The notes under the pieces are model-generated. The model ran no database searches and had not been told where the DNA came from. It was given only the letters and a program-made list of their open reading frames with translations. Of a DNA stretch of 32,000 nt, positions 4,150 to 24,860 are shown in pieces. Within the stretch, counting starts at the first letter, position 1, and every line of letters starts with the position of its first letter. A program made the position numbers and the translations under genes. The stretch lies in NCBI RefSeq assembly GCF_001465295.1, contig NZ_CP011034.1, positions 1,170,001-1,202,000 on the forward strand, in the 5' to 3' direction. This stretch comes from Pseudoalteromonas translucida KMM 520 (GTDB lineage: Bacteria; Pseudomonadota; Gammaproteobacteria; Enterobacterales; Alteromonadaceae).

Positions 4150-6560
<2,411 letters not shown>

Positions 6561-8052: not shown

Positions 8053-9693
8053 TTAGTCGGCTTGAATATCTAGCTGCATATCTTTTGCTTTATGCAAAAT
8101 TTTATTTAAACGCTGCGCCTGATCTGCAGGTAGTTTGGCTTTACTCAGTAAGGCGTAGCATTTTTTAGCAAGCCCCATATTAAACGAATCTCCCCCTTGT
8201 TGTTTGGTCGAATCAAACAAGCACTGTAATAAGTTAAGTGCGATACTCTGATTACGAGGCATTACCCTAAATGCTTGAGTAAACGCTTCTAGCGCCGTAT
8301 TTAATTGCCCTCTATTAAATTGATTTACAGCATGGTTGTTTAACTCTTTAGGCCCCATTTTAATATCGCGACGCTCGCTTTGCTGTTGTTGAATATAACG
8401 TAAATAGGTTGTATCGCTTACACTTGGATGACGCTGACAATGCGTAATTATTTGGGCAAATAAATTTTGAGCTTTTTGATGAAAACCCAGTTCGTGAAAT
8501 GCTTTTGCTTTATCGAGTGCGCCGTCTACAGAGCGAATTTGTGTATCATCTTCATCAAGCTGTTCTATTAGCCGCTTAGCTTTTTGATGTTCATCTTTTA
8601 AGTAGTGTAGGCGTGCGTTTAATACATCGATTTGCGCCTGATTTACATTATTGGGAAACTGCTTTTTTAAATCATTAATATATTGATTAGTTTGGCGAGA
8701 AATACGTTGTATTTGATCCGTTTGATCTGTGGTCAGCGCAAAGTCGATACCGGCACGCGCCGCATTTAAATAAATATCTGGGCTATCGTGAATTGAGTAT
8801 TTTGCATAGCTTGCAATATCTTTTTGGGTTAAGTAGCTCTTTTCATAATCGTGATTAATTAACGATACATTACTTAAAGACTTTTGACGCATAATATTAA
8901 GAGGAGCAATATCCGCAGCCTGACTTAAAAACTCTTGCGCGAGCTCAAATTGATTAAGCTTTATTTCTAAACGACCTAATAAATCAAGCGCGATTAAACG
9001 AGTTTCGTTGCGCTCTAACATGGTTTTAAGCATGCGCTGCGCTAAAATATGTTCATTGTTTTCTATCAGCGCTTCTACTAAACCTACTTTAGCCCATGCA
9101 AATTTTTGGATGTCGAGTACCGACTTAAAAAAGTCTTTGGCTTCTTTGTTACGGTTAAGGCGAAGTAGGGCATCGCCTTTTAAGCGCAGCAAAATAGGGC
9201 TGTAGTTGTTATTTTTATTTAATGCTGCACTTATGTATTTAAGTGCTTTGGAGTCATTACCGTCATCAATAAAATTATAAACTGTTTGTAAATCACGTTT
9301 GCGTTTTAAAATACGCTCTATACGTATTTTAAGCTCTTGTGCTGTAAATGGTTTAACCAAAAAATCATCGGGTTGTAATTCAAGAACACTATGCACAAGC
9401 GAACCACTTGTTTCTGCAGAAATAAAAATAAACCCAGTGGAGCTTTTAATTAACTGCTTTATTCGCAATTCCTCATAAAGCTGATAACCATCTTGATGCT
9501 TATTTAGATTGAATGAGCATACAATTAAATCAAATTGCTCGTTTATACACTGCTCTTTTGCCGAGTTAGCATGATCTGCAAATCGTAACTGTCCAAAGCC
9601 AAGCTTTTCTAGCGATTGTTTCATATAGCTTTGGGCAAGTGGTTGCTCCTCTACTATAAGTATTTTGGCTGTTGAATAGATCTTTGTTGGCAT
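8053..9693 (-). CDS. receiver-domain protein with C-terminal TPR-like repeats (atypical, Asp-less receiver)
   Basis: N-terminal CheY-like fold (KILIVEEQP..., DLIVCSFNL, FIFISAE, LVKPF) followed by ~400 aa of helical repeat sequence. Confidence 0.8.
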   Translation of the reverse strand: MPTKIYSTAKILIVEEQPLAQSYMKQSLEKLGFGQLRFADHANSAKEQCINEQFDLIVCSFNLNKHQDGYQLYEELRIKQLIKSSTGFIFISAETSGSLVHSVLELQPDDFLVKPFTAQELKIRIERILKRKRDLQTVYNFIDDGNDSKALKYISAALNKNNNYSPILLRLKGDALLRLNRNKEAKDFFKSVLDIQKFAWAKVGLVEALIENNEHILAQRMLKTMLERNETRLIALDLLGRLEIKLNQFELAQEFLSQAADIAPLNIMRQKSLSNVSLINHDYEKSYLTQKDIASYAKYSIHDSPDIYLNAARAGIDFALTTDQTDQIQRISRQTNQYINDLKKQFPNNVNQAQIDVLNARLHYLKDEHQKAKRLIEQLDEDDTQIRSVDGALDKAKAFHELGFHQKAQNLFAQIITHCQRHPSVSDTTYLRYIQQQQSERRDIKMGPKELNNHAVNQFNRGQLNTALEAFTQAFRVMPRNQSIALNLLQCLFDSTKQQGGDSFNMGLAKKCYALLSKAKLPADQAQRLNKILHKAKDMQLDIQAD

Positions 9694-9971: not shown

Positions 9972-10047
9972 TGGTGGGTGATACTGGACTTGAACCAGTG
10001 ACCCTCGCCTTGTAAGGGCGATGCTCTCCCAACTGAGCTAATCACCC
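9972..10047 (-). tRNA. tRNA-Val (anticodon TAC)
   Basis: 76 nt with a hand-readable cloverleaf: acceptor GGGTGAT/ATCACCC, D arm GCTC-AGTTGGGA-GAGC, anticodon arm TCGCC-CTTACAA-GGCGA, T arm ACTGG-TTCAAGT-CCAGT, encoded ACCA. Confidence 0.95.
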
Positions 10048-10103
10048 ACATATAAAATAGGTATAACGCTTAATTAAATGCTTTGAACATTTAAACTGTA
10101 ATT

Positions 10104-10179
10104 TGGTGGGTGATACTGGACTTGAACCAGTGACCCTCGCCTTGTAAGGGCGATGCTCTCCCAACTGAGCTAATCACCC
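10104..10179 (-). tRNA. tRNA-Val (TAC)
   Basis: Identical copy of the 9972-10047 gene. Confidence 0.95.
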
Positions 10180-10201
10180 AAATTACATTATTAACTATCA
10201 A

Positions 10202-10296
10202 GGGTGATAGTTAATGCTGGACTTTAACCAGTAATCCTCGCCATTATTTGCAAAAGGCGGTGATACTTTCTTCTTTTGTAACTGAGCTAATCACCC
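10202..10296 (-). pseudogene. tRNA-Val-derived element P2
   Basis: 5' acceptor GGGTGAT. The D loop GGG is replaced by an A-rich insert. The anticodon region is CCGCCTTTTGCAAATAATGGCG. The T loop is TTAAAGT. The 3' acceptor ATCACCC is displaced by a 6-nt insert and embedded in hairpin TTAACTATCA/TGATAGTTAA. Confidence 0.6.
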
Positions 10297-10328
10297 AAAT
10301 TACATTTAATACGCACCATTTATAAAAA

Positions 10329-10404
10329 TGGTGGGTCGTACTGGACTTGAACCAGTGACCCTCGCCTTGTAAGGGCGATGCTCTCCCAACTGAGCTAACG
10401 ACCC
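10329..10404 (-). tRNA. tRNA-Val (TAC), acceptor-stem variant
   Basis: Same body as the other Val genes, but the acceptor is GGGTCGT/ACGACCC (two compensated base-pair changes). Confidence 0.93.
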
Positions 10405-10452
10405 ATATTAAATTTTAAACGCGACTATTAATATAACAATAGGTTTTATATG

Positions 10453-10528
10453 TGGTGGGTGATACTGGACTTGAACCAGTGACCCTCGCCTTGTAAGGGC
10501 GATGCTCTCCCAACTGAGCTAATCACCC
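10453..10528 (-). tRNA. tRNA-Val (TAC)
   Basis: Identical copy of the 9972-10047 gene. Confidence 0.95.
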
Positions 10529-10564
10529 ACATATAAATTAAAACGCTACTATTAAAATAAATAG

Positions 10565-10645
10565 TACTGGATTTTAACCAGTGAACACTGCCTTTACTTG
10601 TAAATAGCGGCTATGCTCTCTTTTTTCTAACTGAGCTAATCATCC
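10565..10645 (-). pseudogene. tRNA-Val-derived element P3
   Basis: The reverse complement reads GGATGAT-TAGCTCAGTTAGAAAAAAGAGAGCA-TAGCCGCTATTTACAAGTAAAGGCAG-TGTTC-ACTGG-TTAAAAT-CCAGT. There is no 3' acceptor; an AT hairpin TACTATT/AATAGTA follows. Confidence 0.6.
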
Positions 10646-10678
10646 ATTTAGATTTTGTAATATACACCATTTTAAAAA

Positions 10679-10754
10679 TGGTGGGTCGTACTGGACTTGA
10701 ACCAGTGACCCTCGCCTTGTAAGGGCGATGCTCTCCCAACTGAGCTAACGACCC
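10679..10754 (-). tRNA. tRNA-Val (TAC), acceptor-stem variant
   Basis: Identical to the 10329-10404 gene. Confidence 0.93.
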
Positions 10755-10783
10755 ATATTACATACTACTACCTATACAGATAG

Positions 10784-10863
10784 TACTGGACTTTAACCAG
10801 TGAACTTCGCCATTACTTGTAAGTAGCGGTGATGCTCTCTTTTTGTAACTGAGCTAACAACCC
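10784..10863 (-). pseudogene. tRNA-Val-derived element P4
   Basis: The reverse complement reads GGGTTGT-TAGCTCAGTTACAAAAAGAGAGCA-TCACCGCTACTTACAAGTAATGGCGA-AGTTC-ACTGG-TTAAAGT-CCAGT. There is no 3' acceptor strand. Confidence 0.6.
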
Positions 10864-10913
10864 ATATTACAATTTTAAAACGCGACTATTGATATGATAA
10901 TAACTTTTATATG

Positions 10914-10989
10914 TGGTGGGTGATACTGGACTTGAACCAGTGACCCTCGCCTTGTAAGGGCGATGCTCTCCCAACTGAGCTAATCACCC
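10914..10989 (-). tRNA. tRNA-Val (TAC)
   Basis: Identical copy; the flanks repeat those of 10453-10528, indicating a tandem duplication unit of about 460 bp. Confidence 0.95.
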
Positions 10990-11025
10990 ACATATAAATT
11001 AAAACGCTACTATTAAAATAAATAG

Positions 11026-11106
11026 TACTGGACTTTAACCAGTGAACTTCGCCCTTACTTGTAAGTATTGGTGATGCTCTCTTTTTTCTAACTGAGTTAA
11101 TTACTC
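11026..11106 (-). pseudogene. tRNA-Val-derived element P5
   Basis: Same architecture as P3 and P4 (GAGTAAT-TAACTCAGTTAGAAAAAAGAGAGCA-TCACCAATACTTACAAGTAAGGGCGA...TTAAAGT). Confidence 0.6.
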
Positions 11107-11140
11107 ATATAGAAATTTAGATGTGAACACTTATAAAAAG

Positions 11141-11216
11141 TGGTGGGTGATACTGGACTTGAACCAGTGACCCTCGCCTTGTAAGGGCGATGCTCTCCCA
11201 ACTGAGCTAATCACCC
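11141..11216 (-). tRNA. tRNA-Val (TAC), promoter-proximal copy
   Basis: Identical copy of the 9972-10047 gene. Confidence 0.95.
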
Positions 11217-11947: not shown

Positions 11948-12023
11948 GGGGCTATAGCTCAGCTGGGAGAGCGCTTCGCTGGCAGTGAAGAGGTCTGCGG
12001 TTCGATCCCGCATAGCTCCACCA
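11948..12023 (+). tRNA. tRNA-Ala (anticodon GGC)
   Basis: GGGGCTATAGCTCAGCTGGGAGAGCG-CTTCG-CTGGCAG-TGAAG-...GGTTCGATCC...CTCCACCA, with the G3:U70 context preserved. Confidence 0.93.
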
Positions 12024-12060
12024 ACTTATTAGTGTTTGTCCTAGGGTAGCAGTTTTCTGT

Positions 12061-12136
12061 GTCCCCATCGTCTAGAGGCCTAGGACACCGCCCTTTCACG
12101 GCGGTAACAGGGGTTCGAATCCCCTTGGGGACGCCA
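12061..12136 (+). tRNA. tRNA-Glu (anticodon TTC)
   Basis: GTCCCCATCGTCTAGAGGCCTAGGACACCGCC-CTTTCAC-GGCGG...GGGGACGCCA; near-identical to enterobacterial tRNA-Glu as I remember it. Confidence 0.95.
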
Positions 12137-12280
12137 CTTAGCTTTAATTAGTTAAAGGCGGTTTTACCGAGAAAATAGCGTCACAATTAAAGCTCGAGTC
12201 TTTACTTGTATTAAACGCAATTACCTTAAAGCTCAGGATGTGAGTTAAACTAATCAACTGTCCTAGTGATACATTTATGT

Positions 12281-12356
12281 GTCCCCATCGTCTAGAGGCC
12301 TAGGACACCGCCCTTTCACGGCGGTAACAGGGGTTCGAATCCCCTTGGGGACGCCA
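12281..12356 (+). tRNA. tRNA-Glu (TTC)
   Basis: Identical copy. Confidence 0.95.
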
Positions 12357-12534
12357 CTTACTATTTAATAGTCAGTGCAGTGTTATTAAGAAAGCTCGCC
12401 TGAAACGAGTCTAAAAATTCAGTTGTCCTAGTGACACAGAAAATGTTTCTGAGAAGATAATGCCATTCGCCTCACAGGCTCGGTCTCATCTTACACAGAA
12501 ATAGCAAATCAATGATTTGCAAACCAATTTCTGC

Positions 12535-12610
12535 GTCCCCATCGTCTAGAGGCCTAGGACACCGCCCTTTCACGGCGGTAACAGGGGTTCGAATCCCCTT
12601 GGGGACGCCA
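12535..12610 (+). tRNA. tRNA-Glu (TTC)
   Basis: Identical copy. Confidence 0.95.
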
Positions 12611-12703
12611 CTTACTTATTTTTAATAGGGAAGTGCAGTGTTATTAAGAAAGCTCGCCTGAAACGAGTCTAAAAATTCAGTTGTCCTAGTGACACATTTC
12701 TGT

Positions 12704-12779
12704 GTCCCCATCGTCTAGAGGCCTAGGACACCGCCCTTTCACGGCGGTAACAGGGGTTCGAATCCCCTTGGGGACGCCA
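12704..12779 (+). tRNA. tRNA-Glu (TTC)
   Basis: Identical copy. Confidence 0.95.
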
Positions 12780-16131: not shown

Positions 16132-18039
16132 CTACTTCTTAACCTTGCCTTTTAGAACATAGATCTCGCCATCGAAGCTTCCCTGAATCGTCAATCCTTG
16201 TCCCGCTAATTCTTTCAGATACTCTATATGATCTTCAGTGATATGCTGTCCCGGAACCAACAGTGGAATGCCAGGTGGATATGGCGTAACTAAACCGGCA
16301 CAAATGCGGTTGTTACTTTTGCTAATAGGCACAGATTCGCGCTCGCCATAAAAAGCATCGCTTGGAATACAAGCTAGGTCGATGGCAGGCAAATTCTCCG
16401 GCAAGCGGGAGCGACGCGACGATGTTGAGAGCTTCACCTTACCGCTGTCGAGTTTTTTTAATGCATTGTACAGACGAATGATCTTCGAACGTGTGCCTCC
16501 AAGCGTCAGTAAAACCAAGATGGTGCTGTGGGTGTATTTTTCTATTTCTAGCCCAATTTCATCTAGCAGGAATTTATGAATATCCTTTAATGAATAAGGT
16601 AATTGACTAATGTCGATGAGAATTTTTAGTGGATCATGGCCCATATTGTCTCCGCTAAAATGCGGAAATATTTCCATAAAGTCTTGCTTACCAAGCACTT
16701 TAATATGGTTAAGCGAGGCCATTTGTTGTTTAAATTCTTCCACATGTTTTAACAAGGCATTGAGCAGCTTATAGCCTTCCATTTCTAACTGCTTTTGGCA
16801 CACGTCAAGTGACGCTATAAGTTGATACTTCGGCGATGTGCTGGCGTAAATACTGTAAATCTCTCGAAAGAAATCGGCATCAAAATCAGGATCGTTAATA
16901 TGAATATAAGACGCCTGAGAAAACGCCGATACCACTTTATGCGCAGAATGGGTGATATAGTCGGCCCCAGCATGAATGGCAGAATAATAGCGTAAGCTGG
17001 GGTGAAAAAGGGAGTAAGCAAACCACGCTTCGTCGATAAACACTTTAATACCATGTTGATGGGCAAAAGCTACCACTTGTTTCAGATCGCTAAGTAAGCC
17101 ATCGTAAGTGCAACCAGTGAGAACCAGCAATTTTGCATCGGTATTTTGCTCGATCGCCTGCTTTATGTCGGCCAACGAAGGTGGCGCGAAGATCCCATAT
17201 TTAGGATTTAAAATACTCGATAAATAAATGGGAAAGCTAGCTGATTGCAAGATGCCATAGTGCACAGACTTATGACAATTTCGGTCGATGATTACTTTAT
17301 CGCCCTTGCGCAGCAGGGTCTGTAAAATGATTTTATTTGAGGTAGATGAACCGTTCGTAACGAAATAGGTATGCTTAACTTCAAACGTCGCCGCTGCTGA
17401 TTCTTGAGCACGGCCAATGGTATTGGTACTGTCTGACAATGAACCTAACGAATCGACTGAAACCGACAGGTCGCCAACAAATACATTACGGCCATAAAAC
17501 TGATAAAAATCTTTGATATAAGGGGAGTTTCTAAAGCTAGAACCGCCGCTATGGCCAGGTGTGTGCCATGAATCGTTTGCTTCGCCAACATAACGGCGAT
17601 ATGCCGTCCAGAATGGGGTTTCTCCTCGATCATCGAAGTCGTTGATCATATAACCTAAAATTGCTTCTGGGTCAGAAATCACCTCATCTTTAAAAAAGAA
17701 AGACTCAATTTCCCCCGACTCGTTAACTATTTCTAATCCTTTAGTGTCGTCGCCGATAACATACACAGGCAACTCGATACGGATCCCTTTTAACTGCTCG
17801 ATAAAGCGACTATATGTTCTCTCGCCCTTGTTGTGCACATCCCAACTGAGAACCACAGCTTGAATATCACCATCTTCTTCTACATATTCCAACGCTTGCT
17901 TGAGATCAAGACATTCAATTATGTCGATATGAACATCATTTCGCTCAAAATTAGGGATCGTTTTCGATAGATTCGTTGAAAGCTCTTGCAAGATGATAGG
18001 GTCTTGCTCAATTAACAAGATACGAAGTAAAGGTAACAT
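16132..18039 (-). CDS. Orn/Lys/Arg decarboxylase family PLP enzyme with N-terminal CheY-like wing domain
   Basis: 635 aa. The N-terminus ILLIEQDP... has a receiver-like fold. The major domain carries the PLP lysine motif SAHKVVSAFSQAS. Substrate cannot be assigned from sequence alone. Confidence 0.8.
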   Translation of the reverse strand: MLPLLRILLIEQDPIILQELSTNLSKTIPNFERNDVHIDIIECLDLKQALEYVEEDGDIQAVVLSWDVHNKGERTYSRFIEQLKGIRIELPVYVIGDDTKGLEIVNESGEIESFFFKDEVISDPEAILGYMINDFDDRGETPFWTAYRRYVGEANDSWHTPGHSGGSSFRNSPYIKDFYQFYGRNVFVGDLSVSVDSLGSLSDSTNTIGRAQESAAATFEVKHTYFVTNGSSTSNKIILQTLLRKGDKVIIDRNCHKSVHYGILQSASFPIYLSSILNPKYGIFAPPSLADIKQAIEQNTDAKLLVLTGCTYDGLLSDLKQVVAFAHQHGIKVFIDEAWFAYSLFHPSLRYYSAIHAGADYITHSAHKVVSAFSQASYIHINDPDFDADFFREIYSIYASTSPKYQLIASLDVCQKQLEMEGYKLLNALLKHVEEFKQQMASLNHIKVLGKQDFMEIFPHFSGDNMGHDPLKILIDISQLPYSLKDIHKFLLDEIGLEIEKYTHSTILVLLTLGGTRSKIIRLYNALKKLDSGKVKLSTSSRRSRLPENLPAIDLACIPSDAFYGERESVPISKSNNRICAGLVTPYPPGIPLLVPGQHITEDHIEYLKELAGQGLTIQGSFDGEIYVLKGKVKK

Positions 18040-18285
18040 AGGCGTTTTCGCAATAAAATTTCATAATGTTTAGTAGCATAACCAAAGGATTGATACTTGT
18101 GAAATTAATACTTTGAAAATGTTCTATTAAATGCGCAAAATCACGAATAAATAGATTTTATTTAAATTGACTTACAAGGTATGAAAAATCAAAGGTGACT
18201 AAAGTCAGGCACCTACTTTAATAAACAAAAAGTAATACTGGAATGCGCATTAATTATTGAGTTGAAGTAGCTCATATCTGACTTA

Positions 18286-18500
18286 CAGCTATGAGCGAGA
18301 AGCGGTCAGTCAGGGTTAATTGGCATTAACTAAGCACTAAAAGGGAACTTTTCCCTTTTTTACATAGTGAAATAACCTACAATAAGCATGATATTTATAG
18401 CTGGCAATAGGTTACGCTATTTGCTATTAATAAAAAATCATAAAATAAGGACGTTTTCGCGCTAAAATAGGGAAAGTGTTCTCTGCTAAAGCTGTTAGGC
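18286..18500 (+). repeat. cassette-junction module, copy A (ends in core site GTTAGGC 18494-18500)
   Basis: Aligns by eye along its length with 19172-19388. Contains terminator 18341-18361, an ATATTTATAGCTGGCAAT box, a TTTGCTATTAAT box and hairpin 18449-18481. Confidence 0.7.
18341..18361 (+). terminator. rho-independent terminator inside module A
   Basis: AAGGGAA-CTT-TTCCCTT followed by a T-run. No plus-strand gene lies upstream of it. Confidence 0.55.
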
Positions 18501-18525
18501 GATAATTCATAGGTATATTTACAAT

Positions 18526-19134
18526 ATGTCAGAAGCACAGGGGTTCCTAGATTCAATTCAATGTTTTGATTTATGGTTATTTAAAGCTGATGGGTTACTT
18601 ACTGCCGCATTAGAATTAACAAAGTCATCAAATGCTTTACGTCAGGAACTATCCAGTGTTGCTGATACTCATAAAGGGCATGAAGAGCGCTGGCAAAACT
18701 CACTACATTTGAATGGTTCTGCGAGTTTATTATATGGGTATGCGCTTGAAACTCTGTTTAAAGGGATTCTGTTAAAGCACAAACCAGAGTCTATTGAATT
18801 AGAAATGACAATGAATGGTTCTGGTGAAATTGGCAGTGCAAAAATTAATAAACTTGGTGTTCAAATGAATAAAGGTCATGATTTAGTCGTACTAGCTAAT
18901 GAAATTGGTTTGTTTAAGTTAATTGAAAATCCGAAGCAAGCTAAAAAAACACTCAATTATTTAAGTGAGTGTGTAAAATGGAGATCAAGATATCCAGCAC
19001 CACAAGAGTCTAAGAAAAATAGACGTTTGACAGGTGAAGAAGCTACAGATTTTATGGTAAACAGTATTTTTATTCACTTTGACCCAATTTATTTAAAATC
19101 ACTAGAAATAGCAGAAAATGGGATCCCGGAATAA
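18526..19134 (+). CDS. HEPN-like domain protein (cassette 1)
   Basis: The pattern YALETLFKGILLK...KGHDLVVLANEIGL...LNYLSECVKWRSRYPAP matches the layout of classical HEPN domains (helix with E..lKa.L, tHdL..L, then ..RYP). Confidence 0.5.
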   Translation: MSEAQGFLDSIQCFDLWLFKADGLLTAALELTKSSNALRQELSSVADTHKGHEERWQNSLHLNGSASLLYGYALETLFKGILLKHKPESIELEMTMNGSGEIGSAKINKLGVQMNKGHDLVVLANEIGLFKLIENPKQAKKTLNYLSECVKWRSRYPAPQESKKNRRLTGEEATDFMVNSIFIHFDPIYLKSLEIAENGIPE

Positions 19135-19135
19135 T

Positions 19136-19388
19136 GCTCTAACCGTCCGCCGTTGGCACTTTTACGAAGTTCGGCTGTGAGCGAGTAGCTGTCATTCAAG
19201 TGGATCGTCATTAACTTAGTAAGAATAAGAGGACACCTTCCTCTTTTTTACATGTTTATATAAATAACAGAAAGCATAATATTTATAGCTGGCAATGACT
19301 TAAACTGTTTGCTATTAATGTAAGTTCGAAAAATAAGGACGTTTTCACGCTAAAAAAGGGAAAGTGTCCTCTGATAAAGTTGTTAACC
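19136..19388 (+). repeat. cassette-junction module, copy B (ends in core site GTTAACC 19382-19388)
   Basis: 19172-19388 aligns with module A, and 19145-19196 aligns with 22693-22743. Contains terminator 19227-19249 and hairpin 19337-19369. Confidence 0.7.
19227..19249 (+). terminator. rho-independent terminator after cassette-1 ORF
   Basis: AAGAGGA-CACCT-TCCTCTT followed by TTTT. Confidence 0.65.
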
Positions 19389-19414
19389 CTTTAAGCATAC
19401 AACGGAGATGTATC

Positions 19415-20134
19415 ATGCTGAGCCATTCATTTGAAGATCTAGCACAAACCTTTAGAGTTCTTATCGAGGCGCAATTTAAATTAGGTCAATTGATCACTAT
19501 AGATCGACCCGAAGCTGTTGGGAATATTGAAACTTCAGTAAATGCTATGTTGAATGCTTTTTCTAATCTATACGACTTAATGCAGCAAGAGCTTGATTCA
19601 CCCGTAGATTGGTATGCAACGCCTGAGTTATGTGTAATTCTTGCCATTAGAAATGCAAGACACCATAACAATGCCAATCGAATTAGAACAATTTATAATT
19701 ACCATGTTCAGAATTCATCTTCTCCAACAGATACATCTAAATACTTTTATGTAAATTTCCCTGCTAATCCAAATGAAGAGGGAGGTGGCTTCTTTGATGT
19801 TGGTATTTCTTGGGGAGATTTATCACTACTATTAGATATGCCTAGAAGCCAATCTAGGTTAAGAAGTAGTGCGAGAGAATTAATTCGTAACTACCTCAAT
19901 GCAGATCAATTTGAAGCTGACGCAGTTGCAGCTGGCTTAACAAATGATGACATTTTCATAAATTTTGTGCCTTTGGCTACAAATGCAGGAATAGCTTTAT
20001 CTCCATATATTCGAGACCATATACAGGCAGCTTCAACAGAGGCTACTGCATTTTTATCTCACTTTGAAAATGTAGCTCCTGCAATTACACAAAGCCATGA
20101 TAGTGAAAAAATAGAATTTATGCTCCCTGCCTAA
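19415..20134 (+). CDS. hypothetical protein with RNxxHH (Rx4H) motif (cassette 2)
   Basis: ATG 19415 is preferred (GGAG 6 nt upstream; the 19364 start would read through the core site). Motif LAIRNARHHNNANR. No other recognisable domain. Confidence 0.55.
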   Translation: MLSHSFEDLAQTFRVLIEAQFKLGQLITIDRPEAVGNIETSVNAMLNAFSNLYDLMQQELDSPVDWYATPELCVILAIRNARHHNNANRIRTIYNYHVQNSSSPTDTSKYFYVNFPANPNEEGGGFFDVGISWGDLSLLLDMPRSQSRLRSSARELIRNYLNADQFEADAVAAGLTNDDIFINFVPLATNAGIALSPYIRDHIQAASTEATAFLSHFENVAPAITQSHDSEKIEFMLPA

Positions 20135-20142
20135 AAAGGGTT

Positions 20143-20164
20143 AACAACACGCCCTGAGGTGGAC
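20143..20164 (+). repeat. 22-mer AACAACACGCCCTGAGGTGGAC, copy 1 (left arm of an attC-like site)
   Basis: Exact repeat of 20692-20713. Directly follows inverse core GGTTAAC (20139-20145) and abuts the 3' end of IS remnant 1. Confidence 0.7.
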
Positions 20165-20690
20165 AGCAAGCACTAAAGTTCACTTTCCACCGCAAATTTT
20201 AACAGCGGTGATCCCTTACTTTTCAATGCGATTAAGTAAGTTGATTCATCGTAGGGCGTATGTGTTTTCCAGCACCTAAATAGTATTCTTATCCACTTAA
20301 ATGCTAATGATCTGATGATGGTATTATGGGGTTTTCCTTTGGCCTCTTGCTGCCGATAATATGCTTTTGCCCAAAATGAATAACGCACAGATAATCCTGC
20401 CCATTCAACAAATGTTTGCCTTAAAAATTTAGTGCACGAATATCGCCAGTGTATCCATTCCTTCTTGCCACTGCGCTCGGTAACAGGGGCAATGCCTGCG
20501 TATTTTTGTATGTCAGCAGCGCACTTATAACGGTCACGATTTGACCCCATAGCGGCTAATAACCGAGGCGCTAATTGTGGTCCTGCACCTGGTAAACTAT
20601 CAAAAATAGCGCGATCTGAATGTTGCTTATAAAGCGTTTTAATTTCGTCATCAAATCGGGTTATTGCCTGCATTAGATGTTTGAGTTGAG
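20165..20690 (-). mobile_element. IS110-family insertion sequence remnant 1 (3' part only, transposase 5'-truncated)
   Basis: ORF 20173-20673 carries only the C-terminal Transposase_20-type domain (FDSLPGAGPQLAPRLL...YAGIAPVTERSGKK...AFKWIRILFRCW). The N-terminal DEDD domain is absent. Confidence 0.8.
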
Positions 20691-20691
20691 G

Positions 20692-20713
20692 AACAACACG
20701 CCCTGAGGTGGAC
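20692..20713 (+). repeat. 22-mer AACAACACGCCCTGAGGTGGAC, copy 2
   Basis: Exact repeat of 20143-20164; abuts the 3' end of IS remnant 2. Confidence 0.7.
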
Positions 20714-21345
20714 GACTAGTAAAATTTAGCTATTAATTGCAAATTTTAAAAGTGGTGAGCCTCTGCGTTTTAATGCAGCTAAATACGTCGATTCATCGTA
20801 GGGTGTATTCGTTTTCCAACACCTAAATACAATCCTTATCCATTTAAATGCCAGTGATCTAATAATGCTGCTATGCGGCTTACCCTTGGCTTTTTGTTGC
20901 TCATAATACGCTTTAGCCCAAAATGAATAACGAATAGAAAAGCCTGCCCATTCTACAAATGTTTGCCTTAAAAAAGTGGGGCAACTATAACGCCAATGCG
21001 TCCACATCTTTTGACCACTGCGCTCAATAACAGGCGCTATACCAGCGTACTTTTGAAGTTCTGCAGCATCATTGTAACGCGCACGATTGCTCCCAAAAGC
21101 AACAAGTAAACGTGGGGCGAGTTGTGGACCTGCACCGGGTAAGCTATCAAATATCTTTTTATCTTGCTGGGCTTTATAAGCCGATTTTATTGCTTTATCG
21201 AGCTTTTCAATACCTTTTAATAACACTTTAAACTGCGTAATAAGCACTTCAACGAGCATTTGATTAGGCACAATGACTCCTTCATCCAGAGTTAATGGCA
21301 TCGCATTTTTAATACTGTCTAGTACGGACAAAAAACAGCTGGCTT
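20714..21345 (-). mobile_element. IS110-family insertion sequence remnant 2 (3' part only)
   Basis: ORF 20726-21331 is clearly paralogous to remnant 1 but diverged. It starts in the linker helix region, so the catalytic N-terminal domain is missing. Confidence 0.8.
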
Positions 21346-21420
21346 TTGCTCGTTCCTCTCTAATTTTCGCCAGCTATTTTATTGCCGCTTAGCAAAGCGT
21401 TAGGCTTACAAGGAAGTCAT

Positions 21421-21981
21421 GTGCAAACTCCATTATTAATTTCTATAATTGCGGTTTTTATTTCTGCTATAAGTGCAGCGGTTACTATATTTAATATATA
21501 TAGAGATCGTGCAAAGGTGATTTCATGGTCAGAAATTGTTTATGATATGTCGCAAGATCCTGATGACCCACCACCAGTATTGTATATAAAAATTGTAAAT
21601 ACAGGGTTAAGACCAATAATCCTTACATCAATTAAAAAGATAGCTAAAAATTCTAGTTGGGGTAACGCTCTTAGGTATCCAGACTATGATCAACTTGATG
21701 TTAACGCTTCAGACGCAATTAGAGATCCAGAAACACGTCGTTCAGTTTTTTCTATTAAAAATACTAGTGTCGTATTAAAGGAATCTGAATATTTTGAAGT
21801 ATCATATGGAATTGATGACTTTCAGCATGAGGTTCGAAGTTTTTTTAACGATGAATTACACGAAGCAATAAGTATGCAAATTGAAGATGTTTTAGGTACT
21901 AAAATTAAAATCAAAGATATTAAAAAAAACATCGAGGCTATGTATCAATATAAGCCTAACAAGAAAATCAACAAGGACTAA
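21421..21981 (+). CDS. hypothetical single-pass membrane protein (cassette 3)
   Basis: GTG 21421 is preferred (AGGAAG 4 nt upstream, downstream of core site GTTAGGC 21399-21405). N-terminal TM LLISIIAVFISAISAAVTIF, then a ~150 aa soluble domain. Confidence 0.55.
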   Translation: MQTPLLISIIAVFISAISAAVTIFNIYRDRAKVISWSEIVYDMSQDPDDPPPVLYIKIVNTGLRPIILTSIKKIAKNSSWGNALRYPDYDQLDVNASDAIRDPETRRSVFSIKNTSVVLKESEYFEVSYGIDDFQHEVRSFFNDELHEAISMQIEDVLGTKIKIKDIKKNIEAMYQYKPNKKINKD

Positions 21982-22019
21982 AAACAGTGGGCTGTTCGCT
22001 CCATTTTAGCTTGTTATTT
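21951..22019 (+). repeat. attC-like recombination site of canonical size
   Basis: Inverse core GCCTAAC (21954-21960) and GTT at 22013-22015. Hand pairing gives 21958-21963/22010-22015, 21964-21968/22003-22007 with a 2-nt bulge, 21975-21977/22000-22002, and apical stem AACAG/CTGTT (21983-21996). Confidence 0.6.
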
Positions 22020-22032
22020 AGGCATTATATTT

Positions 22033-22665
22033 ATGTCGAGGTTTACTGAAGTGACAGAAAATGTAAAAACTAATCTATTTTCCAAAGACCCTAAAGCTAT
22101 TTTCGATCATGTCCGAAATGTTGGAATATCAACCGGCGTTATCTTTGGTTCAAGTATACTTTACAAGCAGAAAGAAGGTGTGCCTGTAGAAGACCAGATA
22201 ATAATAGAAATCGGTACTTGGTCATTACTCATAGTCGGTATATTACTTTTTATAATAAATGTTAACTACGCAGTGCAGACAATTTCTACTTTTATTTTGG
22301 GTAAAAAAGTGGGTTTCGTAGAGCGAATTAAAATATTTTATAGGATAGCAACCTTAGCTTTCAAACTTTCCAAAAAAGGGAAGTCACTTTCTCTTAAAGT
22401 TGATACTTATAAAAAAATTAGGAATTACCATTTAAGAGAATTCGGAGCTCAAATTATTTTAATGTTTTATTATTTAGTAATTGGACTTTTATTAGCCTCA
22501 CACTTGGCAGCATCTGGTGTTATAGATTTAAAGTCTAATACAGATGCTGAGAGGCTATATCTGAACATCTCAAAAGTTACAGAAGTCATTAAAAAACAAC
22601 AAGCTGAACTAACAGTTTTAAAAGAGAAGTTAGCTTTATTAGAGACTGAAGCCACTAAAAAATAA
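22033..22665 (+). CDS. hypothetical membrane protein with C-terminal coiled coil (cassette 4)
   Basis: Hydrophobic helices (WSLLIVGILLFIINV, IILMFYYLVIGLLLASHLAA) and a heptad-like tail QQAELTVLKEKLALLETEATKK. Confidence 0.55.
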   Translation: MSRFTEVTENVKTNLFSKDPKAIFDHVRNVGISTGVIFGSSILYKQKEGVPVEDQIIIEIGTWSLLIVGILLFIINVNYAVQTISTFILGKKVGFVERIKIFYRIATLAFKLSKKGKSLSLKVDTYKKIRNYHLREFGAQIILMFYYLVIGLLLASHLAASGVIDLKSNTDAERLYLNISKVTEVIKKQQAELTVLKEKLALLETEATKK

Positions 22666-22957
22666 ATATAACTAGTGACTAAGGTTACGACAGTCCGCTA
22701 ATGGCACTTTGGCGAAGTCCGCCTAGAGCGAAAACCAGTCATTGCGATTGACTAAATATAATAGTTAACAGATTGGTCAATGTTGTTTGCTCATTAATTG
22801 GAGGTAATGAGCGGCGCGCGTATATTGTTTCATTTAACTTTACATAAAAACTTTAGAAAACTTAGTAATATCTTAGGTAATTTGTTAAAACTATGTAGAG
22901 ATGAGCTAGCAATAGCAAATAAATACGCTATTTGCACACTATTAAATTGTTAGCTGC
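22666..22957 (+). repeat. cassette-junction module, partial copy C (ends in core site GTTAGCT 22949-22955)
   Basis: 22693-22743 matches 19145-19196. 22904-22935 matches 18399-18424, including the exact 12-mer TACGCTATTTGC. Contains hairpin GCTCATTA/TAATGAGC at 22789-22812. Confidence 0.55.
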
Positions 22958-22988
22958 TTTGAGGTAAATCATTAAGAAGGTGCTGTAA

Positions 22989-23870
22989 ATGAGAATATTG
23001 GTAACAGGCTCTGCGGGTAGAGTAGGGCGTGCGATCTATATTAAATTAATGCGAACACATAACGTAGTCGGTATTGATAAAACACCTTGTTCAACAGCCG
23101 ATTACATTGGTGATATTCGTGATAGTGCTCTGATTGATGGGGTTCTTGAAAATATTGATGTCATCATTCATACAGCGGCTCTTCATGCTCCTCATGTTGG
23201 TTTAGTGCCTGATTCTGAGTTTAAATCTATCAACGTAGACGCGACTGAGAAACTGGCTTTGTCTGGCGTAAAAGCAGGTATTAAGCATTTTGTTTTTACC
23301 AGTACAACTGCGTTGTACGGTTATGCTTCGACTCCGAAAGGTATTTCAGGTTGGATTAATGAGGAGGTTACTCCGCAACCTAAGTCGATTTACCATAAAA
23401 GTAAAATTGATGCTGAAACTAAGCTAAAAGAAATTTCAAACCTGTTTCAGCTTCCAGTGACTGTGCTGCAAATGTCGAGATGTTTTCCTGAGGCTGCGGA
23501 TTTAATGGCGGTATTTCGTCTGACTCGTGGTATTGATGCTCGAGATGTAGCAAGTGCTCATTTATGTGCTGTGGAAAAACGTTTAAACGGTTTTAATCGT
23601 TTTATAATTTCAGGTACAACACCTTTTCATCTTTCTGATTGCGAAGCTTTATATACTGAAGCTGGATCTGTCATCAAGCGTAAGTGCCCAGAAATCGCGC
23701 TAGCATTTAAACAAAGAAATTGGCAATTACCTCAATGCTTAGATCGCGTATATGATTCATCGTCCGCACGTGAGAAATTAGGTTGGTCACCTATACATGA
23801 TTTTGAAAGCGTTTTGGAAATGTTAGATTCTGAAACAGCAGAAGTATTGCCAATTTTAAAACGCAGCTAA
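22989..23870 (+). CDS. NAD-dependent epimerase/dehydratase (extended SDR) family protein (cassette 5)
   Basis: Rossmann motif VTGSAGRVGRAI and catalytic YHKSK (YxxxK). SD AAGAAGG lies upstream. Confidence 0.8.
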   Translation: MRILVTGSAGRVGRAIYIKLMRTHNVVGIDKTPCSTADYIGDIRDSALIDGVLENIDVIIHTAALHAPHVGLVPDSEFKSINVDATEKLALSGVKAGIKHFVFTSTTALYGYASTPKGISGWINEEVTPQPKSIYHKSKIDAETKLKEISNLFQLPVTVLQMSRCFPEAADLMAVFRLTRGIDARDVASAHLCAVEKRLNGFNRFIISGTTPFHLSDCEALYTEAGSVIKRKCPEIALAFKQRNWQLPQCLDRVYDSSSAREKLGWSPIHDFESVLEMLDSETAEVLPILKRS

Positions 23871-23911
23871 ACGCGGTAAGTCGGGCTGTTTCTAGTAAAC
23901 TCATCATTTTT

Positions 23912-24000
23912 GTCGGATGGCGTGGCTTCGCCACTTATCCGACCTACCCCGTACAGTAACGTCAAAAGGTAGGTTGGTTAAGCCGAAGGCGCCACCCAAC
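23912..24000. repeat. pair of inverted REP-like palindromic units (BIME-like)
   Basis: GTCGGATGGCGTGGCTTCGCCACTTATCCGACCTAC (23912-23947) and the inverted, diverged GGTAGGTTGGTTAAGCCGAAGGCGCCACCCAAC (23968-24000). Same design as enterobacterial REP (G.CGGATG...CGCC.TTATCCG.CCTAC), recalled from memory. Confidence 0.6.
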
Positions 24001-24184
24001 AAAAAGTTTCAGATTCACGCCTTGAGGCCCGTTAATGGCACATATGGGACTGTCAGATTTGATCGAGTCCTATTAGTTGGATTTGACAGATCAAGTAAGA
24101 CTTATTCATCTAAGCAATCCAAGAAATTAGACAGAAGTGCTCTTCACTGTAAATAAATCAAGCAAGCAGCTATTTAGCTGTTTT

Positions 24185-24820
24185 TTATTCTTCAGTTTTA
24201 TCTTTAAACTCACATAAATCTTCGATGATACAACTACCACACTTAGGTTTGCGCGCCACACAGGTATAACGTCCGTGCAATATAAGCCAGTGGTGTACAT
24301 CAACTTTAAATTCTTTAGGCACTACTTTTTCAAGCTTTTGCTCAACGGCTACAACATCTTTACCCATAGCAAGTTTAGTACGATTAGAAACACGAAATAT
24401 ATGCGTGTCTACGGCGATTACAGGCCAGCCAAACGCGGTGTTGAGTACTACGTTTGCGGTTTTTCGGCCAACGCCAGGTAGGGCTTCTAGTGCTTCTCGG
24501 TTTTCGGGAACTATGCTGTTGTGTTCATCCACCAAAATTTGGCACATTTTATAAACGTTTGCCGCTTTAGAATTAAATAAGCCAATGGTTTTTATATAAT
24601 CTCGAAGTGTATCGTGCCCTAAATCTAAAATGGCTTGTGGTGTGTTAGCCACAGGGAACAGCTTTCGAGTGGCTTTGTTAACGCCTACATCGGTTGCTTG
24701 CGCTGAGAGCGTTACAGCTACAAGTAACTCAAACGGGCTTGAGTATTCAAGCTCGGTTTCTGGGTGCGGGTTATCATCGCGTAAGCGAGTAAGAATTTGG
24801 TGGCGTTTTTCTTTATTCAT
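24185..24820 (-). CDS. nth: endonuclease III
   Basis: MNKEKRHQILTRLRDDNPHPETELEYSSPFELL..., HhH-GPD LPGVGRKTANVVLN, and a C-terminal 4Fe-4S cluster CVARKPKCGSCIIEDLC. The start is set at MNKEKR by analogy with E. coli Nth. Confidence 0.93.
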   Translation of the reverse strand: MNKEKRHQILTRLRDDNPHPETELEYSSPFELLVAVTLSAQATDVGVNKATRKLFPVANTPQAILDLGHDTLRDYIKTIGLFNSKAANVYKMCQILVDEHNSIVPENREALEALPGVGRKTANVVLNTAFGWPVIAVDTHIFRVSNRTKLAMGKDVVAVEQKLEKVVPKEFKVDVHHWLILHGRYTCVARKPKCGSCIIEDLCEFKDKTEE

Positions 24821-24860
24821 ATTACTTAAGCGCACACTTTATTAATGTGCGCTTTTCCTA

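Follow-up and report, generated by a model that had tools for sequence, protein, structure and literature searches.

The 32,000 bp stretch of Pseudoalteromonas translucida KMM 520 DNA analysed here (contig NZ_CP011034.1, positions 1,170,001 to 1,202,000; below "the window", whose own numbering is used throughout) contains a strain-specific island of about 5.8 kb, at positions ~18267–24070, between nth and a gene for an Orn/Lys/Arg decarboxylase. This island is very probably a fossil piece of integron that has no integrase gene, of the CALIN type (CALIN, cluster of attC sites without integron integrase), interleaved with attI-like platforms and lodged in an intergenic hot spot. A reading made from the letters of the DNA alone (the sequence-only reading) had proposed integrase-less, CALIN-like cassettes of the integron type in this interval, and that proposal is upheld by matches to an attC profile, by homologous sites in an integron that has its own intI gene, by the position of insertion sequences (ISs) and by the reuse of cassettes in other arrays. 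Its five open reading frames (ORFs) on one strand are reproduced by ORF calling, and the short sequences it quoted all lie where it placed them: GTTAGGC at 18494, GTTAACCCTTT at 19382, AAAGGGTTAAC at 20135, GTTAGGCTTA at 21399, TAAGCCTAAC at 21951, GTTATTT at 22013, GTTAGCTGC at 22949, GCAGCTAAAC at 23863, GCTCTAAC at 19136 and ATATAAC at 22666. Comparison loci carry L numbers, among them L205 (pPBSW1), L206 and L209 (HL-AS1), L208 (CF6-2), L212 (P. shioyasakiensis SDCH90) and L214 (GCA_015864295.1).

attC sites and cassette ends

Canonical attC sites were taken to have an R'' box (RYYYAAC), an R' box (GTTRRRY) and a bulged imperfect hairpin, with a size of 57–141 nt. Fifteen such sites from arrays of other loci, one of them from the complete HL-AS1 integron with its annotated integron integrase, were aligned and made into a profile, which was run with nhmmer over both strands of the whole window; a profile was used instead of a covariance model because RNAalifold gave no consensus structure for the attC alignment. 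Exactly two significant matches were found in the 32 kb, both on the strand of the cassettes (+) and about 550 bp apart. The first, at 21321–21404 (E = 2.1e-13), spans model positions 18–99 and is missing only the R'' box and the beginning of the left arm, and the second, at 21954–22028 (E = 2.3e-7), spans model positions 1–98 and is full length. The next-best match (4386–4512, E = 0.037) is far outside the island. The sites in the window are homologous to attC sites of the intI-bearing HL-AS1 integron, L209. A home-made scanner for pairing between R'' and R' arms was dropped for the profile, because its sensitivity was too low for canonical attC sites whose spacers are unpaired.

One junction had been described as an imperfect hairpin of canonical size with bulged bases, and the segment 21945–22031 indeed folds in this way (z = −4.5, with none of 200 shuffled sequences as stable). 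The shorter span of the site itself, 21954–22030, gives z = −3.1, and its crossover G is replaced by A. Control attC sites from L001, which has canonical attC sites of ~120 nt, gave z values of −4.8 and −2.6 when folded as single-stranded DNA.

The start and the end of each cassette had been said to be complementary. Our measure was the longest stretch in the 50 nt ahead of the start codon that has an exact inverted counterpart in the 60 nt around the stop codon; set against 3856 random placements elsewhere in the window, complementarity was beyond chance for ORF2, ORF3, ORF4 and ORF5 and at chance level for ORF1. The match is 14 nt for ORF2, a length that chance never reaches (a perfect complement between the cassette start at 19379–19392 and its end at 20135–20148), 10 nt for ORF3 (P ~0.005) and 8 nt for both ORF4 (P ~0.044; TTATATTT at 22025–22032 with AAATATAA) and ORF5 (P ~0.044). 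Four of five ORFs at P ≤ 0.044 is far from chance.

Organisation of the array

The five cassettes are grouped in three units, each led by a platform that consists of a ~55-nt E1–linker–E2 spacer and a head of ~170–200 nt with the attI-like end ...A(T/A)AAnnTG/TT (here and below a slash within a sequence marks the crossover point). The features of the island are as follows.

18267–18298, + strand: left island boundary, a degenerate E1-like stretch and then the E2 core TGAGCGA (18292–18298)
18292–18496, + strand: head type 1, copy 1, non-coding, ending ...CTGCTAAAGCTG/TT (GTT 18494–18496)
18526–19134, + strand: ORF1, cargo of cassette 1, 202 aa, no known family
19136–19143, + strand: R''-type box GCTCTAAC, remnant of the collapsed attC site of cassette 1; no hairpin in 19137–19216 (z = +1.0) and no profile match
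19144–19198, + strand: E1–linker–E2 spacer 1, with TGGCAC at 19154–19159 and TGAGCGA at 19178–19184; the arms are mismatched in this copy
19178–19384, + strand: head type 1, copy 2, ending ...CTGATAAAGTTG/TT (GTT 19382–19384)
19415–20134, + strand: ORF2, cargo of cassette 2, 239 aa from ATG, no known family
20139–20145, + strand: R'' box GGTTAAC of the ORF2 attC site, with an IS inserted immediately after it
20146–20691, − strand: IS-a, 3' part of an IS110-family element, transposase fragment PF02371, 92% identical to a full IS in L001
20692–21323, − strand: IS-b, another IS110-family fragment, nested behind a ...GGAAC of IS-a and shortened by a deletion
21321–21405, + strand: remainder of the attC site of the ORF2 cassette, model positions 18–99, R' GTTAGGC at 21399–21405; central stem z = −2.8
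21421–21981, + strand: ORF3, cargo of cassette 3, ~186–199 aa (start GTG 21421 or TTG 21382), no known family
21954–22030, + strand: short full-length attC site, 77 nt, R'' GCCTAAC at 21954–21960 and R' ATTATAT at 22024–22030
22033–22665, + strand: ORF4, cargo of cassette 4, 210 aa, with hydrophobic stretches (by eye only)
22666–22690, + strand: collapsed attC site after ORF4: R'' ATATAAC, 11 nt, R' GTTACGA (22684–22690); z = −1.1
22691–22747, + strand: E1–linker–E2 spacer 2, with TGGCAC at 22702–22707 and GAGCGA at 22726–22731
22725–22951, + strand: head type 2, homologue of the intI–attI intergenic region of Pseudoalteromonas integrons (homologous part ~22780–22951)
22989–23870, + strand: ORF5, first cassette after head type 2, 293 aa, NAD-dependent epimerase/dehydratase family (PF01370, E = 8e-21)
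23863–24037, + strand: degenerate 3' region of cassette 5, with the R''-like GCAGCTAAAC, an inverted pair of sequences resembling repetitive extragenic palindromes (REPs) at ~23911–24001 and the R'-like GTTAATG (24031–24037)
24034–24066, + strand: right terminal E1/E2-like element, with TGGCAC at 24036–24041 and TGATCGA at 24060–24066

The array is not a plain run of ORF–attC units, because its other junctions are collapsed attC sites, spacer and attI-like head. Two of the five positions at which attC sites had been predicted are attC sites by the profile (matches at 21.3–21.4 and 21.95–22.03 kb), and the junctions after ORF1, ORF4 and ORF5 form no hairpin (z = +1.0, −1.1 and −0.4, the last after removal of the REP-like pair). 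One attC site is thus disrupted by an IS and truncated, one has A/TT at its crossover, two have collapsed to R'' (plus R') boxes and one is degenerate and holds the REP-like pair. After cassette 1, E1 follows the R'' remnant directly, without the usual G/TTAC. The arrangement R''-ACTAAGG/TTACGA at the ORF4 junction recurs in pPBSW1 and in L180. The start of cassette 4 had been placed at GTTATTT (22013), and this has to be corrected: comparison with L001 puts the boundary between A22024 and T22025 (A22024/TTATAT).

The two members of the REP-like pair, GTCGGATGGCGTGGCTTCGCCACTTATCCGACCTAC and GTAGGTTGGTTAAGCCGAAGGCGCCACCCAAC, travel with the ORF5 unit in L214, and a 79-aa ORF that spans them (23917–24156) is probably spurious. 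A/TT in place of G/TT is found at several independent sites, namely 22024 in the window, ~3837 in L150 and the heads of L007, L148, L149, L185 and L205; such sites may be inactivated, or else A/TT may be tolerated in this system.

The attI-type region upstream of ORF5

The window was said to carry no intI gene, and none was found: tblastn of the pPBSW1 IntI against the whole 32 kb has a best E value of 0.6, and an IntI1 query gave nothing significant. The window thus has no intI beside an attI, the arrangement of a complete integron. The accompanying statement that there is no attI was wrong, since 22780–22952 is an attI-region homologue. Head type 2, which ends CACTATTAAATTG/TT with its GTT at 22949–22951, aligns locally with the sequence that separates intI from the first cassette in both pPBSW1 and HL-AS1, and these spacers have the same end. 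The direct blastn match is weak (70% identity over 97 nt), and a homologue in the metagenome-assembled genome (MAG) L019 bridges the two at 74% identity over 175–182 nt (E = 1e-22 to 1e-25). Judged by these alignments, 22780–22951 is a true homologue of the intI–attI spacer of complete Pseudoalteromonas integrons, and of the two head types only this one combines, for the integrons examined, homology to the intI–first-cassette spacer with an end at the crossover GTT. Four different sequences stand behind this same GTT in five loci. Because head type 2 is an attI homologue, GTTAGCT at 22949, which had been taken as the core site of a cassette, is an attI-type crossover with ORF5 behind it. A short conserved element stands where intI should begin.

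We note that intI of P. shioyasakiensis SDCH90 (L212, ~9001–9060) looks frameshifted near its 5' end, with one A missing in ATGAAAACTCGC; the SDCH90 gene table has no gene there, and it is likely a pseudogene beside an array of four cassettes. At one chromid locus, between a TIGR00366-family gene and ppiC, CF6-2 (L208) has only a type 1 head and one ORF, with no intI, and P. shioyasakiensis (L212) has an integron, which looks like a natural replacement of platform or integrase at one site.

Head type 1 and the E1–linker–E2 spacers

The two type 1 heads of the window, both with the attI-like ending ...ATAAAGnTG/TT, are 79% identical over 160 nt, and copy 2 is shared with L001 up to 19385, after which a different cassette follows. 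The family (~205 nt) has more than 25 further copies, on metagenome contigs and in four PLSDB records of Pseudoalteromonas plasmids, which we take to be large replicons (chromids) plus smaller plasmids. A metagenome scan with one 17-mer of the head gave 120 new loci, of which ~30 are true copies by blast and the rest apparently chance matches; a scan of viral contigs for the head gave no matches. Conservation starts at TGAGCGA and stops sharply at ...CTGATAAAGnTG/TT. In a set of 29 copies, identity is 75% over the 40 nt that lead up to the GTT and 31% over the 40 nt that follow, the downstream sequence differs in all 29, and the crossover triplet is GTT in 23, ATT in 5 and GCT in 1. This position at the starts of arrays, with 29 different sequences downstream, is attI-like behaviour. 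The ends of attI in Pseudoalteromonas integrons (...ATTAAATTGTT, ...CAATAAGCTGTT in CuT4-3 and ...ATAAACATGTT) resemble that of head type 1, the likeness being confined to the final ~15 nt.

On longer contigs a head opens a run of same-strand ORFs with canonical attC sites at their 3' ends, and the run closes with ...G/TTAC(C/G)A followed by E1 (AATGWCYGCnnnTGGCAC). Between units, E1, a ~17-nt linker and E2 (TGAGCGAnnnGCRGTCATT) make up an imperfect palindrome of ~55 nt. Platforms of E1, E2 and head, with either head type, also lie within the arrays of integrons that have an intact or frameshifted intI (pPBSW1 and P. shioyasakiensis, the latter with two platform copies within 3 kb). Two other identities for the spacer were considered and rejected. 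E1–E2 is not an attC hairpin, as the window copies do not fold and arm complementarity is no better within copies than between them; nor is E1 a remnant of the nth 3' end, for which inspection by eye gave only a coincidental 8-mer and a tblastn search of the island no partial nth. A scan of the whole window with Rfam (E ≤ 1) returned only tRNAs and a single chance match below threshold; no curated RNA family therefore includes the heads or the spacers.

Two alternative folds can be drawn for the heads: a pair of local hairpins, one terminator-like and the other with conserved G–U pairs, or a single long-range stem of ~20 bp whose significance is modest (z = −2.2 and −2.5). Pairing holds in 80% of cells for the long-range stem and in 91% for the local hairpins, and for neither fold does covariation exceed the controls; it cannot choose between them because the head family is too conserved.

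A ~2.3-kb element with a tyrosine recombinase and an IS91-family transposase (L205, 16195–18515; L206, 12175–14494) lies directly against a crossover GTT in two settings, a real attI in pPBSW1 and a type 1 head in HL-AS1, with TGTT at both junctions, and metagenome contig L096 has the HL-AS1 arrangement without it. The last ~40 nt of this element also form an inter-cassette junction in L007; it may be a cassette or a GTT-targeting IS.

An IS110-family nest in the ORF2 attC site

The IS110-family remnants reported earlier are two C-terminal transposase fragments (PF02371), and they lie within the attC site of ORF2. Immediately after the R'' box of that site come IS-a, IS-b, a deletion and then the attC remainder that ends in R' GTTAGGC (21399), so that R'' and R' are now split by two nested fragments. 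IS-b is 97.6% identical to a full-length IS in L214, whose 420-aa transposase has both PF01548 and PF02371. A 22-nt repeat occurs in the window at 20143 and 20692. The duplicated cassette of HL-AS1 shows that this repeat is the R'' AAC plus the IS end AACACGCCCTGAGGTGGAC and not attC sequence: copy 1 ends ATATAAC/AAGTCATTC... with an intact attC site, and copy 2 ends ATATAAC/AACACGCCCTGAGGTGGAC... followed by a full IS110-family element. Insertion directly after the ...AAC of R'', with the AACACGCCCTGAGGTGGAC end, is fixed in the window (between 20145 and 20146), L001, L206, L209 and L214. About 10 nt of the left arm of the ORF2 attC site have gone through the deletion, and the site is almost certainly dead.

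The two HL-AS1 copies (L209, 10874–11699) are identical, carry the same protein accession and constitute the first cassette of that integron, which may have been duplicated recently at attI.

Cassette contents and their reuse

ORF1 to ORF4 gave nothing with PADLOC, PHROGs or NCBIfam, and ORF1 has no Pfam match either. A protein identical to ORF1 is encoded on four metagenome contigs, in two further neighbourhoods; for ORF2 a look-up of exact protein records returned none. ORF3 has an N-terminal hydrophobic stretch, seen by eye only.

The units to which ORF1, ORF4 and ORF5 belong are 98–99.5% identical in other arrays, with different neighbours. L001 carries the ORF1 and ORF4 cassettes at 98.7–99.5% identity, separated there by a full IS and four other called ORFs. 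The window and L001 diverge right after GTT 19382–19384 (between 19384 and 19385) and converge again at TTATAT (between 22024 and 22025), where L001 reads ...CAGGCG/TTATAT and the window ...TTAGGCA/TTATAT; thus the ORF4 cassette, 98.7% identical, has a different attC site in front of it and the shared sequence begins at TTATAT. These two breakpoints are of the G/TT type, and others fall in the E1/E2 spacer. Cassette-wise variation at G/TT, which the sequence-only reading had named as support for its proposal, is therefore seen at several junctions. The ORF5 unit (~22705–24021) is 98.7% identical in the L214 array, with its head included and its protein identical, and the ORF1 unit retains its upstream head in three different contexts.

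The L214 array has two heads, three attC-profile matches and genes of the TIR, SLATT_5, Shedu (SduA_C) and GAPS4 types. Among the related arrays L001, L003 and L214, cassettes of defence type encode CAP12-PCTIR TIR, SLATT_5, SduA_C (Shedu) and PDDEXK_GAPS4 proteins and AAA_15/AAA_21 ATPase pairs. Because neighbouring cassettes in related arrays encode such proteins, the orphan ORF1 to ORF4 may, by analogy, also be defence genes.

Origin of the array and alternative explanations

In the explanation that we prefer, the five promoterless-looking cassettes would originally have been captured by an integron integrase through G/TT recombination. Every platform has to its left the R' box of the attC site before it (G/TTAC...) and at its right end a G/TT of its own, and from these crossover-type sequences on both sides it follows that the simplest origin of the platforms would be the insertion of attI circles into attC sites. 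Circles that carry attI and no integrase gene would recombine by attI × attC, with IntI supplied in trans, and the predicted product is attC-left–G/TTACCA–E1–E2–head–G/TT–next cassette. The GTT of the head would then serve as a further insertion point, accounting for the diversity downstream, and homologous recombination between repeated platforms would shuffle whole units with breakpoints that are not fixed. With no intI in the window and with damaged crossover bases, the array is probably frozen now.

Several observations weigh against this explanation. The attC profile is a sequence-only model, specific to one attC family, and the junctions after ORF1, ORF4 and ORF5 have no attC signal by profile or by folding. 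Head type 1 was never found beside intI in the six integrons examined, so that its putative attI nature is argued from position, end sequence and analogy. Covariation supports no fold of the heads. The breakpoints of units have no fixed position within E1–linker–E2, which fits homologous as well as site-specific recombination. Finally, promoter prediction gave no sigma-70-like match on the + strand of the heads, and since the one match runs leftward (18407 to 18379), the suggestion that heads are promoters or insulators is only hypothetical.

The platforms could alternatively belong to small non-autonomous units (E2–head–cargo–E1) moved by a transposase or recombinase other than IntI, with the integron features as their cargo and the island a tandem accretion of three units that end in the imperfect inverted repeats TGAGCGAnnnGCGGTCATT ... 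AATGACYGCnnnTGGCAC. This is improbable, although solitary head–ORF–E1 units do occur at unrelated sites with no intI nearby (L206 beside chaN, L207 beside a plasmid rep gene, and L208), the upstream head stays with the ORF1 unit in three different contexts, and E1/E2-like elements bracket the whole island (18267–18298 and 24034–24066). The inverted relation of E1 and E2, which a transposon or a miniature inverted-repeat transposable element would share, is imperfect and holds at the level of the family; four copies have matched arms of 8–11 bp, but arm complementarity is no better within a copy than between copies (5.4 versus 4.9), no target-site duplication was seen by eye at the ends inspected, breakpoints vary within the spacer and no candidate transposase is associated with the units. 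Moreover E1 is always preceded by an R'-type G/TTAC, as the integron explanation predicts and movement of such units does not. Less probable still is an ordinary genomic or defence island that arrived by homologous recombination in the flanks and in which the GTT/AAC matches and repeats are incidental. The hot spot does hold unrelated islands in other species, many of them bounded by partial nth 3' ends, and related arrays carry TIR, SLATT, Shedu, GAPS4 and AAA_15 genes of defence type; this idea is contradicted by the attC-profile matches (E = 2e-13 and 2e-7), by the attI homologue inside the island, by an attC-targeting IS at its canonical position and by start/end complementarity beyond chance, and the window has no partial nth copy.

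Least credible of all is that E1–linker–E2 is what an internal deletion left of intI, with the first codons joined to the last, and that each platform is a complete integron that lost its integrase in place. E2 does lie exactly at the intI start position relative to head type 2, a mini-ORF on the reverse strand of the spacer, M-(T/S)-A-x-R-S-x-P-N-F..., recalls the IntI N-terminus MKTRSPFLNY, and GTGCCAACGG matches the codons for ...GANG... close to the C-terminus of IntI. When 10 spacer copies were made into a profile, however, it found nothing significant in six intI genes (best E = 0.34, 15-kb search), and several of the mini-ORFs contain stop codons and frameshifts.

Returning to the integron explanation, the array itself is ordinary and well explained by it, and the platform architecture is a possible variant of integron organisation. 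It is conceivable, though we would not bet on it, that Pseudoalteromonas carries integrase-less satellite integron platforms: ~260–300-nt E1–E2 plus attI-like head modules, bounded by G/TT and cassette-like with an attI site, that would insert into attC via IntI in trans and then act as extra capture points, possibly also as insulators or promoters, both within arrays and at sites scattered over the chromosome. In that case they would provide one concrete route to the formation of CALINs. A limited check of the literature found no description of integrase-less attI-type platforms between cassettes.

The nth–decarboxylase interval

The island is flanked, as had been stated, by housekeeping genes, the receiver-domain decarboxylase gene (16132–18039) on one side and nth (24185–24835) on the other, both on the minus strand; the ORFs beyond nth presumably form an rnf operon, which they resemble. 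The decarboxylase is 93–97% identical to counterparts in many Pseudoalteromonas species, and the look-up gave no exact-protein record for it. Between these genes lie the five plus-strand ORFs and the two minus-strand IS110-family transposase fragments, and the G+C content is 31–37% over 18.0–23.0 kb versus ~39–44% in the adjoining flanks. The nth terminator (24164–24183) follows the right terminal element, which is identical to the left boundary at 22 of 33 positions as read from the sequence.

Far from being conserved base for base across the genus, this interval is a hypervariable intergenic hot spot. It is short (~185–540 bp) in P. phenolica and three other strains, where it contains only the decarboxylase promoter region and REP-like repeats, and elsewhere in the genus it measures from 1.4 to more than 7 kb with unrelated contents. 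Beyond its first ~260 bp beside the decarboxylase gene, the insert of the window was found at the same locus in none of 80 genomes. The flank is common to the window, L019 and L020 until ~18305 and diverges beyond; in L019, position 18304 is joined directly to a homologue of 22726–22952, without the ORF1–ORF4 block (18.3–22.7 kb). Partial copies of the nth 3' end, from one to four in number, often split the larger inserts. A duplicate of this kind bounds islands in L011, L013, L020, L041 and others, and tblastn finds none in the island of the window.

In L011, L013, L014, L020, L031, L039 and L041 such partial nth 3' ends (residues ~130–215) partition the interval into 1–3-kb blocks of unrelated genes, which resemble serial islands that each imported an nth 3' end. 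No integrase-sized ORF was seen in the three nth–decarboxylase intervals for which ORFs were listed. At a distance of ~6 kb from the island the window has highly repetitive tRNA arrays, with seven tRNA-Val(TAC) genes in tandem (9972–11216, minus strand) and, divergent from them, one tRNA-Ala(GGC) and four tRNA-Glu(TTC) genes (11948–12779, plus strand).

Comparison with known systems

A CALIN is a cluster of attC sites without an integron integrase, and 279 CALINs versus 164 complete integrons were counted in sequenced genomes (Cury et al. 2016, PMC4889954). The island shares with CALINs a group of at least two same-strand attC sites within 4 kb, the lack of intI nearby, mostly unknown cargo and associated ISs; it differs in that attC sites are kept at two of five junctions, both seemingly inactivated, and in carrying attI-type regions, which are outside the CALIN definition. 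The origin of CALINs is unsettled, and this locus details one path of decay, through a nest of attC-targeting ISs, collapsed attC hairpins and a G-to-A change at a crossover.

The sedentary chromosomal integrons of marine Gammaproteobacteria, represented here by the chromid integrons of Pseudoalteromonas sp. Bsw20308 (pPBSW1), HL-AS1 and P. shioyasakiensis, have the same attC family, the same attC-targeting IS, a homologous attI-proximal region that ends CACTATTAAATTG/TT, and E1–E2–head platforms within their arrays. Unlike the window, they have their own intI, intact or frameshifted, and a LexA-box-like CTGT-N8-ACAG beside attI.

Some members of the IS1111 family target one end of attC sites (PMC11187229). 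The elements found here share with that group (e.g. ISPst6 and ISKpn4) a DEDD-type transposase, with PF01548 and PF02371 in full copies, and a fixed position and orientation in attC, in this case in five independent arrays. The copies in the window differ from them in being two nested 3' fragments, a deletion having taken the rest together with ~10 nt of attC.

Isolated cassettes at secondary genomic sites (attG), or single attC sites lacking an integron integrase (SALINs; Loot et al., bioRxiv 10.1101/2022.09.11.507474), are likewise integrase-made insertions outside a complete integron, and by analogy an insertion of the SALIN/attG type could explain how cassettes arrived in the nth–decarboxylase spacer. 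The island differs in being an array of several units that have attI-like heads of their own, not a single cassette, and it offers no definable junction of the attG type.

What sets these arrays apart is that attI-type regions without an integrase are reused repeatedly as the heads of cassette groups, both within complete integrons and at solitary sites. If the heads are active when IntI is supplied in trans, an array would have several points of capture and expression, and models of cassette order, cassette expression and CALIN origin would change; if they are inert, the locus amounts simply to a fossil array, well documented, at a hot spot of recombination. The nearest described analogue of the platforms is the ORF-less, promoter-bearing cassette, or shared 5' untranslated segment, such as qacE101 (PMC8876359). 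Like the heads it is non-coding, bounded by crossovers and found before many different cassettes, and the heads resemble it in having a hairpin of terminator type and AT-rich sequence that looks like a promoter. At the 3' end of ORF-less cassettes stands a classical attC site (PMC8876359), whereas the heads, which give no attC-profile match and have no such site at their 3' ends, end like attI and have the E1–E2 palindrome in front of them.

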